In this document: in pieces, positions 17,908 to 31,630 of the stretch
Numbering within the stretch: the stretch's first letter is position 1
Layout: every line of letters starts with the position of its first letter
Origin: an uncultured Gammaproteobacteria bacterium
GTDB taxonomy: Bacteria; Patescibacteriota; Patescibacteriia; UBA11705; DATKZF01
Assembly (NCBI GenBank): GCA_964411255.1
Contig: CAYPKD010000002.1
Coordinates: 34,100 to 98,099, forward strand
Direction of reading: 5' to 3'
Length of the DNA stretch: 64,000 bases
Position numbers and translations under genes: made by a program
The notes under the pieces: model-generated
What the model was told of the DNA's origin: nothing
What the model saw: the letters and a program-made list of their open reading frames with translations, nothing else
The model's database searches: none

Positions 17908-18315
17908 TCAGATTTGATGATTGCGTTGATTAATTTTACTATTTATTAATCTCTTAAATTCTAAACTTTTCGCTCCAAAATTTATTAGTAATCCTACCTC
18001 TAAATTAAATGCTTCTAAATAATTTATTGCTTGAGCCAAGTGAACATCTTCCAGTTTGGTTAATGCTTTAATCTCTACTAATACGCAATCCTCTACAAAA
18101 AAGTCAACTCTCCGTCTACCAATTTGTATTCCTTTATAATGGACCTGTATTTCTTCTTCTCTTGTAAAGGCTAGATCATTATCTGTTAATTCAATAGCAA
18201 GTGCTCTTTGATAGATTACTTCCTGGAAACCGTTTCCGAGCGTGCTATGTACTTGCATTCCTGCTCCAATAATTTTTTCCGTAATATCTGAGTATTTGTA
18301 TGTTTTATTTGTCAT
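17908..18315 (-). CDS. GxxExxY protein (PD-(D/E)xK-like; rRNA-IVS-associated family)
   Basis: LGNGFQEVIYQRAL core; E..VDFFVED..VLVEIK pattern. Confidence 0.7.
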   Translation of the reverse strand: MTNKTYKYSDITEKIIGAGMQVHSTLGNGFQEVIYQRALAIELTDNDLAFTREEEIQVHYKGIQIGRRRVDFFVEDCVLVEIKALTKLEDVHLAQAINYLEAFNLEVGLLINFGAKSLEFKRLINSKINQRNHQI

Positions 18316-24760: not shown

Positions 24761-25246
24761 TTATTTTTTATTTTTTTCAGAAATTAGTTTCATCGCATCA
24801 GGCGGAATAGATGACTCATAATGCACTTCATGGATTTCAGCTGCTTCAAAAGGATCAGGATTGTTTGGGTCAGCTTTCATCAAATAGTTGTGGGTGCGGG
24901 AAGGTGTAAGATATTGTGTGTCTATTTCTAAAACAACCAGATTGCCTTTTTTTGCTTTTTGCGTTTCTTCAGCTACGCCCATTGCAAAATCAATGTCATC
25001 TGATAAGGAGACAACTTCCCGGTCTTCAAGTATTAATTTGGACGGATCAAGGCCTTCTTTCAATATTTGCTGCGCGTTTTGCCGCGTGGTTACATGATAA
25101 AGTTTTTCCGGAAGAGGTTTTCGCCGTTTTTCAAAATAAGCTTCTTTTTCATCAATCTTTTTAAGCTGCTTTTTCATTGCTTCTGTGAATTCATCAATTG
25201 ATTTCATTAATTCCTCAGGATTTACTTGGGGTTGTTCTTTATTCAT
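24761..25246 (-). CDS. hypothetical protein with LYHVT..ILKEGL motif (tentatively Tpt1/KptA-like ADP-ribosyltransferase fold)
   Basis: Resembles LYHGT..GL block of RNA 2'-phosphotransferases; N-terminal catalytic R/H residues not evident. Confidence 0.3.
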   Translation of the reverse strand: MNKEQPQVNPEELMKSIDEFTEAMKKQLKKIDEKEAYFEKRRKPLPEKLYHVTTRQNAQQILKEGLDPSKLILEDREVVSLSDDIDFAMGVAEETQKAKKGNLVVLEIDTQYLTPSRTHNYLMKADPNNPDPFEAAEIHEVHYESSIPPDAMKLISEKNKK

Positions 25247-27437: not shown

Positions 27438-28064
27438 TTATGATTTGGATGCGCTGCTTTTATTTTGCGTTTTGGTCTTTGGTACAAATTTACCATTTTT
27501 TATGTCAAAACGTTTAAATACAGATACTGTGCCTTCAATAACTTGATGCAAGCTTGATATAGCTTTTATAGCATCCTTGTGAGGATTTCTTCCACGGCCA
27601 TGAGCATACTTGTTTCGTAGTTTTGCAATTTTTGTAAATTGACTCTTAAGATCGTTTTCAATCACTTTAGTTGCAATTAATAGTTCTCTAACTGTTTCTA
27701 AGGGGATTTGTTCTAATTGCTTTCCTTGTTCTGCTGTGGGGGGGAGACCCATTTTACCTTTCCTAAATAGTATTGTAACTCTCAAAAGGTCTTGGGCAAT
27801 CCTTTCTGCGGTTATTCCGCACATAACAACACAAGAATAAAACTTTCCTTCTATATAAAGCTGTCTCGTCTCAAGTAGTATATTAGAATATCTCCCAGGA
27901 TGTGTCATTATAGCGGGGAGTTCTTTTGTTCTTTTTATAATATCATCAATATTTTTCTTAAATTCTTGTATTATGAACTCTTTATAATTTTCTTCTTCGC
28001 CTGGGATTTTTAATACATTTGGAGTTAGGTCTGTCCATACGTCGATTGTTTTTTTTCCTGGCAT
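27438..28064 (-). CDS. HEPN-motif protein (putative RNase / abortive-infection-like)
   Basis: AKLRNKYAHGRG contains the R-x4-H HEPN signature in a helical context. Confidence 0.45.
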   Translation of the reverse strand: MPGKKTIDVWTDLTPNVLKIPGEEENYKEFIIQEFKKNIDDIIKRTKELPAIMTHPGRYSNILLETRQLYIEGKFYSCVVMCGITAERIAQDLLRVTILFRKGKMGLPPTAEQGKQLEQIPLETVRELLIATKVIENDLKSQFTKIAKLRNKYAHGRGRNPHKDAIKAISSLHQVIEGTVSVFKRFDIKNGKFVPKTKTQNKSSASKS

Positions 28065-28069
28065 ATTTT

Positions 28070-28273
28070 TTATTTTTCAGTAAAACCCTTATTAATATAG
28101 TATTTTCTGAAAAAATCATCTGCGTCTTTTTTGGTTCCAAATTCATTTTTTGGAAAACCTACTTCTTGAACATCAATTTTACTGCCATTATTCAAATAAT
28201 TAAAGAGAGTACCAGCTGGTATCCATTTTTTTGATTTTTCTAATTGGTGAGATATTACTTTAAACTTTTTCAT
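28070..28273 (-). CDS. small protein upstream of HEPN gene
   Basis: 6 nt from HEPN gene start. Confidence 0.4.
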   Translation of the reverse strand: MKKFKVISHQLEKSKKWIPAGTLFNYLNNGSKIDVQEVGFPKNEFGTKKDADDFFRKYYINKGFTEK

Positions 28274-28825
28274 ATTTTGGAGTTATTATTGATTGACAAA
28301 TGAAATATTTATAGTAAAATATACTTGTCCCTTTGGGGCATTTATAATTAACTTTCAATTATATGAAAGCAATATTGAATGTCCCTGGCGCGTAACTTTT
28401 TTTAGAACTATGTCGCAGTGAGTGGCTGCGTTATAAACACTTTAAAACCATCGTTTCAATGAGGCTGCTAGCATCGGGGACAAAATATTCCTCACCTAAA
28501 GGAGGAAAGTAGCAGCGAATATGAAAAACTCTTGTATCAGCAGGAGCTGATAGTGATTTTCGTGGAGAAAACCACGTTAAAAATTTATCATTATCTGTAG
28601 TATTATTACGTAAGGCTTTGGGCAAAGGATCAGGCAGCTGATAATGCTTGGTTTTTTTGTTATTTTATTTAAAAACGTTCAGAAAAAAGATCTATCAAGA
28701 ACCTTGGAATTTCAGCAAACCATTCATCTGGATAAAGCCATGCTATCACAAACCAACATAGTATTACGATTATGAGCATGATAATAATTGCAAGAATAGT
28801 TAATAGTGTCTCTGTTAGCTTTTTT

Positions 28826-29377: not shown

Positions 29378-29444
29378 ATTGATTTGATACTAAACTTCAC
29401 TTGAATTTTAGCAGGTTTAGGTTATATGATCAATTTTAAACGGC

Positions 29445-29503
29445 TTGACAACATAAAAATGGTTTGATATAAAGAAATGTCGCTAAAGTAGCGAAAGGAG
29501 GTG
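29445..29503 (+). promoter_or_regulatory. cassette module B1
   Basis: ttgaca acataaaaatggtttga tataaagaaatgtcgctaaagtagcgaaaggaggtg. Confidence 0.65.
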
Positions 29504-29507
29504 TGAC

Positions 29508-29735
29508 ATGAGAATTGAAAGTAAGATTGCCTTATGCTGGATAGCTCTTTTTATAGCATGGCTTTCATTAATCATTTCTGGTCATTATTTTAGTGGAGAG
29601 TTGGGAGTAAAGCTGGCTATAACGGGAATAATCTTCGCCGTTGTCTGGTTTATTTCAGGAGTTAGTATTCTCTTAATTAGCTTATCTAGAGCTAGGACAA
29701 ATCAAACATTTGATCCATTTAGCCAATCCGTTTAG
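29508..29735 (+). CDS. cassette ORF B1, 75-aa two-TM protein
   Basis: SD-ATG spacing 5. Confidence 0.5.
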   Translation: MRIESKIALCWIALFIAWLSLIISGHYFSGELGVKLAITGIIFAVVWFISGVSILLISLSRARTNQTFDPFSQSV

Positions 29736-29756
29736 GAAATATCCTGAGCGGTTTTT
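29727..29756 (+). terminator. cassette terminator ccgtttaggaaatatcctgagcggttttt
   Basis: Variant of ccgcctaggaaaaatcctgggcgg hairpin. Confidence 0.5.
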
Positions 29757-29761
29757 GATTC

Positions 29762-29818
29762 TTGACAGACTGAAAATAGTTTGATATAAATAAGTATCGC
29801 TAATACGGCGAAAGGAGG
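29762..29818 (+). promoter_or_regulatory. cassette module B2
   Basis: ttgaca gactgaaaatagtttga tataaataagtatcgctaatacggcgaaaggagg. Confidence 0.65.
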
Positions 29819-29823
29819 TTGGG

Positions 29824-30237
29824 ATGACAAAAAAAGTCAATTTAATACTTGAATTTGTCTGCCTGGTTATTGCTTTTATAATAACATTTGGTTTCTATGC
29901 AGCAGGGAGATTGATTTCAGCTCAAGAGGCATTTGATTTTGTGCCGCTTGCCTTCGGCTCGGTTGGCTTCATTTTTAGCTTTTGGGTTTGGAGCAAGATC
30001 TCTCAGATTTCAGAAAAAAATAATTCAGCAGATAGGTTGCAAGCGGGAGTGCCGCTTATTATTACTCTAAGCACTGCGGCTGGCATGCTGATCGGATTGG
30101 TCGCCTGCAGGGCGGCAATTAATATGGGAGCACATTTAGCAATTGGCATCATCCTGCCAGTAGCCGGGATTGTCTTGGGCATGGCCCTTGGATTGCGAAT
30201 TAGATCTATTCTGTTAAAAAAAAGTGTTAATCTATAA
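29824..30237 (+). CDS. cassette ORF B2, 137-aa four-TM protein
   Basis: Hydrophobic helices. Confidence 0.5.
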   Translation: MTKKVNLILEFVCLVIAFIITFGFYAAGRLISAQEAFDFVPLAFGSVGFIFSFWVWSKISQISEKNNSADRLQAGVPLIITLSTAAGMLIGLVACRAAINMGAHLAIGIILPVAGIVLGMALGLRIRSILLKKSVNL

Positions 30238-30240
30238 TTC

Positions 30241-30264
30241 AAGCACTCCATTGAGTGCTTTTTG
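30241..30264 (+). terminator. cassette terminator type 2 (gcactccattgagtgc + T5)
   Basis: Same hairpin at 31455-31477. Confidence 0.55.
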
Positions 30265-30269
30265 TATTC

Positions 30270-30326
30270 TTGACACCCTGAAAATGGTTTGATATAAATA
30301 AATATCTCCAAGGCAGCGGAAAGGAT
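30270..30326 (+). promoter_or_regulatory. cassette module B3
   Basis: ttgaca ccctgaaaatggtttga tataaataaatatctccaaggcagcggaaagga. Confidence 0.65.
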
Positions 30327-30333
30327 GTGTGTT

Positions 30334-30531
30334 ATGAGTAGTAGTCAGCAAAGGGAAGAAATGATTCAGATTTTTGATTGTTTTGCGTCGTCTAAGTGGA
30401 GAGGGGGCATGTGTGATCATATTTGCAGCCGATGTGCCTATGCGGGAAACAGGAGATGGGTTCTAAAAAAAGAGTGGCAGAAATATGCTAACCGATACCC
30501 AACTGATTTTGATGACTTTGATAATTGCTAG
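30334..30531 (+). CDS. cassette ORF B3, 65-aa Cys-rich protein (possible zinc ribbon)
   Basis: CDHICSRCAYAGN...C; alternative start 30325. Confidence 0.45.
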   Translation: MSSSQQREEMIQIFDCFASSKWRGGMCDHICSRCAYAGNRRWVLKKEWQKYANRYPTDFDDFDNC

Positions 30532-30552
30532 GAATATGATGAAAAATTAACT

Positions 30553-30582
30553 TGCTTGGAAAGAATCCTGGGCGGTTTTTTA
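30553..30582 (+). terminator. cassette terminator cttgcttggaaagaatcctgggcggtttttt
   Basis: Followed by three AAAACGCAAAA(G) motifs 30583-30630. Confidence 0.55.
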
Positions 30583-30632
30583 AACGCAAAAACGCAAAAT
30601 TTGACAATTGTATTAGTGAAAACGCAAAAGAT

Positions 30633-30691
30633 TTGACAAGCTAATATTATTTGATATAAATAAGTATCTCACAAACCAAACGAAAGGAGGT
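30633..30691 (+). promoter_or_regulatory. cassette module B4 (16-nt spacer)
   Basis: ttgaca agctaatattatttga tataaataagtatctcacaaaccaaacgaaaggaggtg. Confidence 0.6.
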
Positions 30692-30696
30692 GCGGC

Positions 30697-31023
30697 ATGG
30701 AAGCAGAAGTAATAGAAATCAATGGGGCATCCATGATTGATAAAACTTTTGCAGAAATATTAGAAACAATAGTCCAGAGAGTTCGGGAAGCCTCAGGAGA
30801 GAAAATAGTTGTTTCTTTGGAAATAGGTCTTTATAAATTCTTAGCTGATACTGCGGGTAGAAGGCTATGTTCAGGAGGTGTATTAGATGGAGCTCCACTG
30901 GGGCTGATTCAATGGCTTAAGGATTTATGTAGAGATGAAGGATTATCGGTCAATGTGGGGTATGCATGGCATGGTGAATTTCGCGATCGCTTTAAAAAGT
31001 GTCTTACATTCGAAAAAATCTGA
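30697..31023 (+). CDS. cassette ORF B4, 108 aa
   Basis: SD-ATG spacing 5. Confidence 0.5.
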   Translation: MEAEVIEINGASMIDKTFAEILETIVQRVREASGEKIVVSLEIGLYKFLADTAGRRLCSGGVLDGAPLGLIQWLKDLCRDEGLSVNVGYAWHGEFRDRFKKCLTFEKI

Positions 31024-31047
31024 CTTGAATATTCATGTATTTACTAA

Positions 31048-31077
31048 TCCGCCTAGGAAAAATCCTGGGCGGTTTTT
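31048..31077 (+). terminator. cassette terminator ccgcctaggaaaaatcctgggcggttttt
   Basis: 9-bp stem, T5. Confidence 0.6.
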
Positions 31078-31081
31078 ATCC

Positions 31082-31136
31082 TTGACAATCTGAAAATGGT
31101 TTGATATAAATAATTATTGCTAAGACGGTGAAAGGA
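31082..31136 (+). promoter_or_regulatory. cassette module B5
   Basis: ttgaca atctgaaaatggtttga tataaataattattgctaagacggtgaaagga. Confidence 0.65.
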
Positions 31137-31144
31137 TGTGCGGC

Positions 31145-31438
31145 ATGAGGGACAAAAAGCGAAAGCCGCCGGCACATGTGGTTATTCTTGACATGTTGAA
31201 GTATGAGCTGCAACGTGCTAGGGATATCAGTGAGGTCGGCCCAAAGACAAAGTTGACGCAACAGTTTTCTGATGTGAGACTTTTACTCATTGCATTAGGA
31301 AGAATGTTTATTCCAAAAAGATCTAAAGCAAAGGTAATGCGGGGACTTCAAAGACTCAAATCCATGTGTACGCCTAAAATGCATCAAGGCAATGAAATGC
31401 TCGAAGTAGCAATCAAGCGCATCGAGGAGGATTATTAG
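31145..31438 (+). CDS. cassette ORF B5, ~97-aa basic protein
   Basis: ATG 31145 (MRDKKRK) preferred; alternative 31136. Confidence 0.45.
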   Translation: MRDKKRKPPAHVVILDMLKYELQRARDISEVGPKTKLTQQFSDVRLLLIALGRMFIPKRSKAKVMRGLQRLKSMCTPKMHQGNEMLEVAIKRIEEDY

Positions 31439-31454
31439 TTGTATTAATTGTTAA

Positions 31455-31477
31455 CGCACTCCACTGAGTGCTTTTTT
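31455..31477 (+). terminator. cassette terminator type 2 (gcactccactgagtgc + T6)
   Basis: Followed by decayed promoter-like gtatccttgttttctg. Confidence 0.55.
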
Positions 31478-31630
31478 GTATCCTTGTTTTCTGTAGGAAT
31501 TTATGTTAAAATTTACACAATCTTTCCTTATTAAGAGGGCTTAAGAAGTCTTGATAAGGCTTAAGAAGGCAAAGGAGGGCTGAAGGAAGGGAAAGATGAT
31601 TAGATATTATCGTTTATGAAAAATATTAGA

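Follow-up and report, generated by a model that had tools for sequence, protein, structure and literature searches.

A predicted stand-alone HEPN ribonuclease of a small DUF4145-like family, encoded next to a lineage-specific 67-residue open reading frame

HEPN ribonucleases serve as effectors in Cas13, Csm6, RnlA/LsoA, HepT, AbiU2 and RAZR, and new branches of this superfamily have tended to reveal new ways of silencing a dangerous RNase until it is needed. The locus analysed here, part of a window of 64,000 nucleotides (the whole stretch of DNA under study), poses two linked questions: is its 208-aa protein an HEPN ribonuclease, and, if so, does the small gene directly upstream hold it in check? 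The initial annotation had pointed to an R-x4-H motif (RN..AH) in the protein and had paired it with a 67-aa gene as a toxin/antitoxin or abortive-infection (Abi) couple. We find the motif on the minus strand, where residues 147–158 read AKLRNKYAHGRG (including ELRNKYAHG), with R150 and H155 spaced by four residues and N151 directly after the arginine; R150, N151 and H155 are conserved in relatives. The 67-aa gene is present on the same strand as well, at a distance of 5 nt (28065..28069) rather than 6. Based on the analyses described below, we propose that the 208-aa gene probably encodes a stand-alone HEPN endoribonuclease of a small DUF4145-like family, a conflict or stress RNase of the Abi or toxin-like kind whose control is built into the protein. 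The features on which the discussion draws are collected in Table 1.

Table 1. Positions of the HEPN gene, its upstream region and the recurrent upstream gene of one sub-branch
Feature	Position	Strand	Remarks
208-aa HEPN-domain protein, divergent DUF4145-like family (predicted)	27438..28064	minus	ATG start
R150-N-K-Y-A-H155 codons, R-x4-H catalytic motif of HEPN RNases	27600..27617	minus	end of helix 3
E87-R-I-A-Q91 codons, conserved helix 2 acidic residue	27792..27806	minus	E-x3-[KR] element
67-aa ORF, ORFan	28070..28273	minus	ATG start; 5 nt upstream of the HEPN gene
Strong promoter-like site, TTGACA-16-TAAAAT	28293..28320	plus	pointing the opposite way; in the 395-nt gap 28274..28668
Promoter-like site, GGGACA-16 nt-TATAAT	28358..28385	minus	10/12 matches; consensus scan only; 85 nt before the ATG of the 67-aa ORF
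64-aa ORF	28431..28625	minus	TTG start; borderline coding score 0.087; in the 395-nt gap
Terminator-like hairpin	28507..28488	minus	upstream of the 28358..28385 promoter-like site
~89-aa upstream gene of a sub-branch	L050 2809-3084; L056 1450-1719		contains …NELYFAVLPQITVSG…YLTGGHV…

Because a bare R-x4-H is common by chance, being expected by our own estimate about 0.2 times in a protein of 208 aa, the motif alone is weak evidence. In a Pfam scan of the protein all matches were sub-threshold, and every one of them was to a family of the HEPN clan: HEPN_RiboL-PSP (PF18735; E 4.3e-5, 24 bits, cut-off 28.4), DUF4145 (PF13643; E 0.025, 15.1 bits, cut-off 23.1), HEPN_Apea (E 0.061, 14.2 bits) and Abi_C (E 0.098, 13.2 bits). 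Scanned one by one, all 13 close homologues matched DUF4145 (best 7.3e-6), and the RiboL-PSP, Cthe2314-like HEPN and HepT-like profiles were each matched by 8 of the 13 (HepT-like best 0.021). Two distant family members, P0077 and P0094, score above the DUF4145 gathering cut-off of 23.1 bits, with 31.4 and 24.7 bits respectively, and P0010 carries a precomputed PF13643 assignment. PADLOC defence models gave no convincing match for the 208-aa protein (best E 0.005), the weak CARF_HEPN matches (E 0.005–0.013) aligning at the HEPN end only, and in NCBIfam the N-terminal part of a type I restriction endonuclease was matched weakly (0.015). DUF4145 is itself a family of the HEPN clan (Anantharaman et al. 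2013; PMC3710099). Given that the window protein stays sub-threshold, that all 13 homologues match and that P0077 and P0094 pass, we regard the family as a divergent branch or a sister of DUF4145, with the membership of the individual window sequence borderline.

The predicted fold supports the same assignment. An AF2 model of the 208-aa protein (pLDDT 77.8, pTM 0.69) consists of an N-terminal extension (residues 1–57), helix 1 (58–71), helix 2 (75–97, carrying E87-R88), a variable insert (98–136), helix 3 (137–154), helix 4 (161–183) and a beta-hairpin tail (186–195), the last of which is modelled with low confidence. A Foldseek search of the PDB with this model placed HepT toxins and TTHA0636 at the top of the ranking, with a probability of ~1.0. 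Another structure comparison listed as neighbours Roquin HEPN and TT1696 (10.5 each), sacsin HEPN (10.3), ST0689 (10.2), the HepT toxins 7ae2 and 5yep (9.7) and Csm6 (9.6). A search of the sequences of solved structures with the family profile yielded nothing meaningful (3kae, E 0.57).

An HEPN active site is made up of an R-x4-6-H that ends helix 3, a polar residue after the arginine and an acidic residue in helix 2, usually as E-x3-[KR] (PMC3710099). All three are found here: R150–H155 ends the helix spanning residues 137–154, N151 follows the arginine, and E87 lies in the helix spanning residues 75–97. At position 91, the far end of the E-x3-[KR] element, 88 of 154 family sequences have K or R, and the window protein has Q. 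R150, N151, Y153, H155 and E87 are invariant in the 13 closest homologues (alignment A1); across 164 family sequences, the set over which our conservation figures were computed, they are retained at 96% (R150), 87% (N151), 84% (Y153), 94% (H155) and 88% (E87, with aspartate in a further 10%). By sequence and by modelled structure, the 208-aa protein thus belongs to the HEPN superfamily (Pfam clan CL0291). Profiles, predicted fold and conservation of the catalytic residues all support this assignment, which the initial annotation had made.

How large is the family, and what sets it apart? A word-indexed search of 5.8 billion proteins returned only 13 relatives. When 1.84 billion cluster representatives were searched exhaustively with HMMER, 191 were recovered at E <=1e-3 and 17 at E <=1e-30, and the family is therefore small but real. 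Its own characteristic residues, beyond those of the active site, are R45 (96% of the 164 sequences), E65 (93%), G73 (93%), D164 (93%) and G191 (88%). Conservation also extends to two elements beyond the HEPN core: the N-terminal extension of ~55 residues, with D12, R45 and a D-x-x-P-N motif, and the C-terminal beta-hairpin, F-K-x-Y-x-I-x-x-G-K-L-V-x-K (G191), which is kept even in distant fused variants. In ~14 cluster representatives the protein carries an extra N-terminal domain of ~180 aa, for which there is no Pfam match; P0090, P0094, P0106, P0121 and P0124 (~340–375 aa) have this domain, and it is conserved among them. P0117 (328 aa) carries an MshEN (c-di-GMP-binding) domain, and its catalytic histidine is replaced by glutamine (motif RNKYFQ). 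The ~180-aa and MshEN fusions hint at an HEPN module that is coupled to interchangeable sensor domains.

The distribution of the family is sporadic and crosses unrelated phyla, with relatives in MAGs labelled Thermotogae, Chloroflexota, Aggregatilineaceae, Syntrophaceae and Dehalococcoidia, on contigs of 32–64% GC. A scan of viral contigs found no family relative, and Foldseek against BFVD gave no match at E <0.01. One lineage has a split copy of 89 + 121 aa, present on at least 10 contigs (L008, and also L009, L010, L011 and L044). Directly upstream of the split copy in L008–L011 lies a 120-aa ORF with an RNGVFH (R-N-x3-H) motif of its own and no Pfam match (the whole region in L008 being 5239-6366); this ORF may represent another mini-HEPN gene, so far unrecognised, arranged in tandem. 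Treating the 120-aa neighbours in L005 and L008 as one family was rejected, the two being unrelated to each other.

What is the relevance of the 67-aa ORF? Its codon-usage log-likelihood ratio in frame is 0.209 per codon, compared with a maximum of 0.084 for spurious ORFs of 50–100 aa in the window (n=54) and a mean of 0.253 for 67-codon chunks of real genes, within whose range it lies, and an ATG-started ORF of this length arose in 78 of 2000 dinucleotide shuffles (3.9%) of the 604-nt stretch. The ORF is probably a real, lineage-specific gene that is co-transcribed with the HEPN gene. Its product is basic, with 13 K and 1 R to 8 D/E by our count, and its single-sequence AF2 model is of low confidence (pLDDT 60, pTM 0.37). 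In a search of 5.8 billion proteins its sole match was itself; Pfam, NCBIfam, PADLOC and PHROGs gave no match, whether to an antitoxin-type domain or to any other, and tblastn detected no copy in 80 related loci. Over 2.2 kb the DNA of L001–L004, the four contigs with this same locus, is 100% identical to the window.

To look for a conserved partner, we called and clustered the ORFs neighbouring the family member in 73 loci (44 non-redundant groups), and no neighbour family was common to more than 4 of the 44. For 32 distinct loci whose upstream sequence reaches 250 nt or more, we also asked whether a same-strand ORF of at least 40 aa ends near the start codon: such an ORF is absent in 18 of these 32 informative loci, among them the low-GC loci L006, L012, L024, L030 and L033, the low-GC loci being the most comparable to the window, and in the remaining 14 the upstream ORFs are heterogeneous (40–250 aa). 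A partner gene conserved beside the toxin gene across homologues, the criterion for a type II toxin-antitoxin system, was thus not found. As judged from these sequence comparisons, the 67-aa gene is neither a family-level nor a conserved partner.

One sub-branch departs from this pattern. In L050, L055, L056 and L059 (four non-redundant groups), a conserved gene of ~89 aa with no Pfam match lies directly upstream; in the two loci inspected, L050 and L056, it runs 11 nt into the start of the HEPN gene. BLASTP showed no similarity between the 67-aa ORF and the 89-aa gene of L056. The gene further upstream in L050 and L055 we take to be rpoC from its sequence, and synteny may therefore explain part of the recurrence of the 89-aa gene. 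The ~89-aa gene is nonetheless a candidate for a genuine partner within its sub-branch, and its conservation and overlap suggest that some members of the family, at least, are controlled through a partner.

The two-gene module envisaged initially, with the 67-aa protein as a lineage-specific antitoxin binding to the HEPN RNase and neutralising it, is in our view unlikely, even though parts of the evidence speak for it. The order of a small gene followed by the toxin gene on the same strand with a 5-nt gap, a likely common promoter in the 395-nt gap further upstream and the coding-like codon usage of the ORF all fit such a module. Antitoxins are often swapped between related toxins, and the different, overlapping 89-aa gene of one sub-branch could be read as an instance of such swapping. 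Set against this are an ORFan without homologue in the protein collection or the 80 related loci, the 18 of 32 loci that lack any comparable upstream ORF, and a product that is basic rather than acidic, has no antitoxin-type domain and is modelled with low confidence. The genes after the HEPN gene are spaced at 18, 24 and -4 nt and belong to an array of ~11 co-directional genes, within which no terminators are predicted; because tight spacing is the rule along this array, the 5-nt gap is not distinctive. The pairing is not borne out by an ORFan that is absent from the 80 loci, in a family where at most 4 of 44 groups have any neighbour in common. The annotation can be raised from hypothetical protein to putative DUF4145-like HEPN ribonuclease, and the proposed pairing is corrected.

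The 395-nt gap upstream of the 67-aa ORF (28274..28668) holds no convincing gene, looks more GC-rich than its surroundings and also contains small hairpins; a gene in decay or a region with a regulatory role would both be possible readings. The minus-strand promoter-like site in it is possibly the start of the transcription unit. An RNA antitoxin or other ncRNA in the gap was considered and set aside, as Rfam returned nothing at gathering scores and the matches seen were at chance level (E 0.4–0.5).

Beyond the gap, on the plus strand, positions 29430-31600 contain four to five copies of a ~67-nt cassette, cTTGACA-N17-TTTGATATAAAT...GCGAAAGGAGGT-ATG, that combines a promoter, a 5'UTR and a strong Shine-Dalgarno site. 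Copies begin at 29436, 29753, 30261 and 31073, an incomplete one lies at ~30643, and each is followed by a small plus-strand ORF (75, 137, 68, 108 and 100 aa), the first two of which look membrane-spanning. A conserved hairpin terminator, AATCCGCCTAGGAAAAATCCTGGGCGGTTTTT, stands after several of the cassette ORFs (29725, 30549 and 31046). This array of individually promoted small genes lies shortly before lepA (31682). Shine-Dalgarno sites of this kind are lacking from the minus-strand genes that surround the HEPN gene.

In what kind of process would the protein act? The neighbourhoods of several relatives point to genetic conflict. In L021, four genes on one strand (1852-4591) encode an HTH + Panacea (SocA-like) antitoxin, a MazF/PemK toxin, an AbiU2 HEPN protein of 250 aa and the family member, the AbiU2 gene ending 13 nt before the latter; by its gene content this is a compact conflict island. 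L012 has an MNT + HEPN pair 700 nt downstream of the family member. From the sequences, we read a HicA/HicB-like pair and phage remnants in L015, and genes that are presumably IS110-type transposases in L005, L031 and L048 and tyrosine recombinases in L019 and L033. The toxin or Abi role that the initial annotation had suggested is plausible from this context of relatives (L021, L012, L015 and L005), but not as a two-gene pair with the 67-aa gene.

The window itself has a different character. Around the HEPN gene lie HD-domain, Bact_hydrolase, methyltransferase, YunG and Tpt1-like genes, alongside small ORFs that are lipoprotein-like or unknown, and in this part of the window we found no tRNA, no integrase and no gene recognisable as belonging to defence, toxin-antitoxin or mobile elements. 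The accessory island in which the gene had been placed is therefore weakly founded. The co-directional array of the HEPN gene encodes, at 24761-25246 on the minus strand, a 161-aa protein with a weak match to the RNA 2'-phosphotransferase Tpt1/KptA (phrog_5470, 2.3e-7; PF01885, 3.5e-5, 24.4 bits, cut-off 26), so that an RNA-end-modifying enzyme of Tpt1-like type would lie 2.2 kb downstream of a predicted RNase; this proximity may be a coincidence. A 135-aa PD-(D/E)XK nuclease (PDDEXK_3, 1.4e-39) is encoded at 17908-18315, also on the minus strand, in the same run of small genes.

Such surroundings, with HD-domain, hydrolase, methyltransferase and Tpt1-like genes in place of defence genes, would suit a housekeeping or accessory HEPN protein that processes or binds RNA without a role in conflict, or a catalytically silent binding module, and both kinds have precedents in HEPN proteins that process RNA (Las1, Ire1) or are non-catalytic (PMC3710099). 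We nevertheless consider this reading improbable, to a degree somewhat beyond that of the two-gene module. A sporadic spread over unrelated phyla (191 representatives), variable neighbours and a split copy are at odds with a core function, the strong conservation of R, N, H and E, all four catalytic residues, speaks against a silent module, and several relatives sit in toxin-antitoxin or Abi clusters. That the protein is instead the HEPN component of a known multi-gene system, whether a HepT/MntA type VII pair, a restriction-modification-linked DUF4145 protein or a CRISPR-accessory CARF-HEPN protein, is very improbable despite weak matches to HepT-like (0.021), CARF_HEPN (0.005) and type I restriction endonuclease N-terminal (0.015) profiles and structural neighbours that include HepT and Csm6, given that no nucleotidyltransferase, restriction-modification or cas gene lies near the HEPN gene in the window, that there is no CARF domain in a protein whose 208 aa comprise the HEPN core and short extensions, that the HepT motif R-x4-H-x-Y is absent, with G-R after the histidine, and that relatives have no conserved MNT neighbour.

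We therefore return to a stand-alone conflict or stress RNase and propose the following model. Characterised HEPN RNases dimerise, building a composite R/H site (PMC13017515; PMC3710099), and hence a dimer is expected for the 208-aa protein. Two protomers would come together to form a composite, metal-independent active site from R150, N151 and H155 with E87, which would cleave single-stranded RNA and leave 2',3'-cyclic phosphate ends. Since most relatives are without a partner gene, control is most likely built into the protein. The N-terminal extension (D12, R45) and the C-terminal beta-hairpin are candidates for maintaining latency or for sensing a trigger; alternatively, latency may lie in the requirement for a trigger. 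Single-protein HEPN systems such as RAZR offer a precedent. A more far-reaching version of this model, which we put forward tentatively and regard as rather doubtful, is that the family represents a previously unrecognised single-gene Abi system, in which the HEPN RNase is kept latent by its N-terminal helical extension and C-terminal beta-hairpin until a phage or stress cue switches it on, or else that the 67-aa protein arose de novo as a lineage-specific antitoxin.

How does the proposed stand-alone RNase compare with known systems? With DUF4145 it shares R-x4-H with a polar residue after the arginine, the acidic residue of helix 2 and the best-shared profile of the family, as well as an occurrence both stand-alone and in conflict-related contexts. 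Unlike classical members, for which fusion with or linkage to genes of restriction endonucleases, helicases or restriction-modification systems is common (PMC3710099), it has no restriction-modification context in the window, and its branch possesses an N-terminal extension of its own and a conserved C-terminal beta-hairpin. HEPN_RiboL-PSP (PF18735) is the best single-sequence Pfam match, covering residues 132–183 (helix 3, the motif and helix 4), but the C-terminal third of that profile alone aligns, below the gathering score, and 8 of 13 close members match. [quoted passage not shown] A CARF-HEPN protein (Csm6/Csx1) was likewise rejected, the protein being too short for a CARF domain and no CRISPR/cas feature being seen around the gene.

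The closest functional parallel may be RAZR (PD-T7-4), a single-protein Abi RNase that joins a zinc finger to a DUF4145 HEPN domain and is activated by assembly on phage ring proteins; its R and H are required for defence, and it cleaves ssRNA once triggered (PMC13017515). The 208-aa protein is not RAZR, as it has no Cys4 zinc ribbon, with no cysteine in residues 1–57, and its R and H are spaced by 4 residues, compared with R146...H154 in RAZR. Like RAZR, it is one protein of ~200 aa with an N-terminal non-catalytic module, a C-terminal DUF4145-type HEPN domain and no antitoxin gene. The branch as a whole is compact (~200 aa) and usually without a partner gene, with conserved extensions and natural fusions, MshEN among them; if the gene does function in defence, it would constitute a small and easily tested single-protein system. 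Under the single-gene Abi version of the model, it would use a sensor module unlike the one in RAZR, and relatives would have exchanged the N-terminus for the ~180-aa domain or for MshEN.
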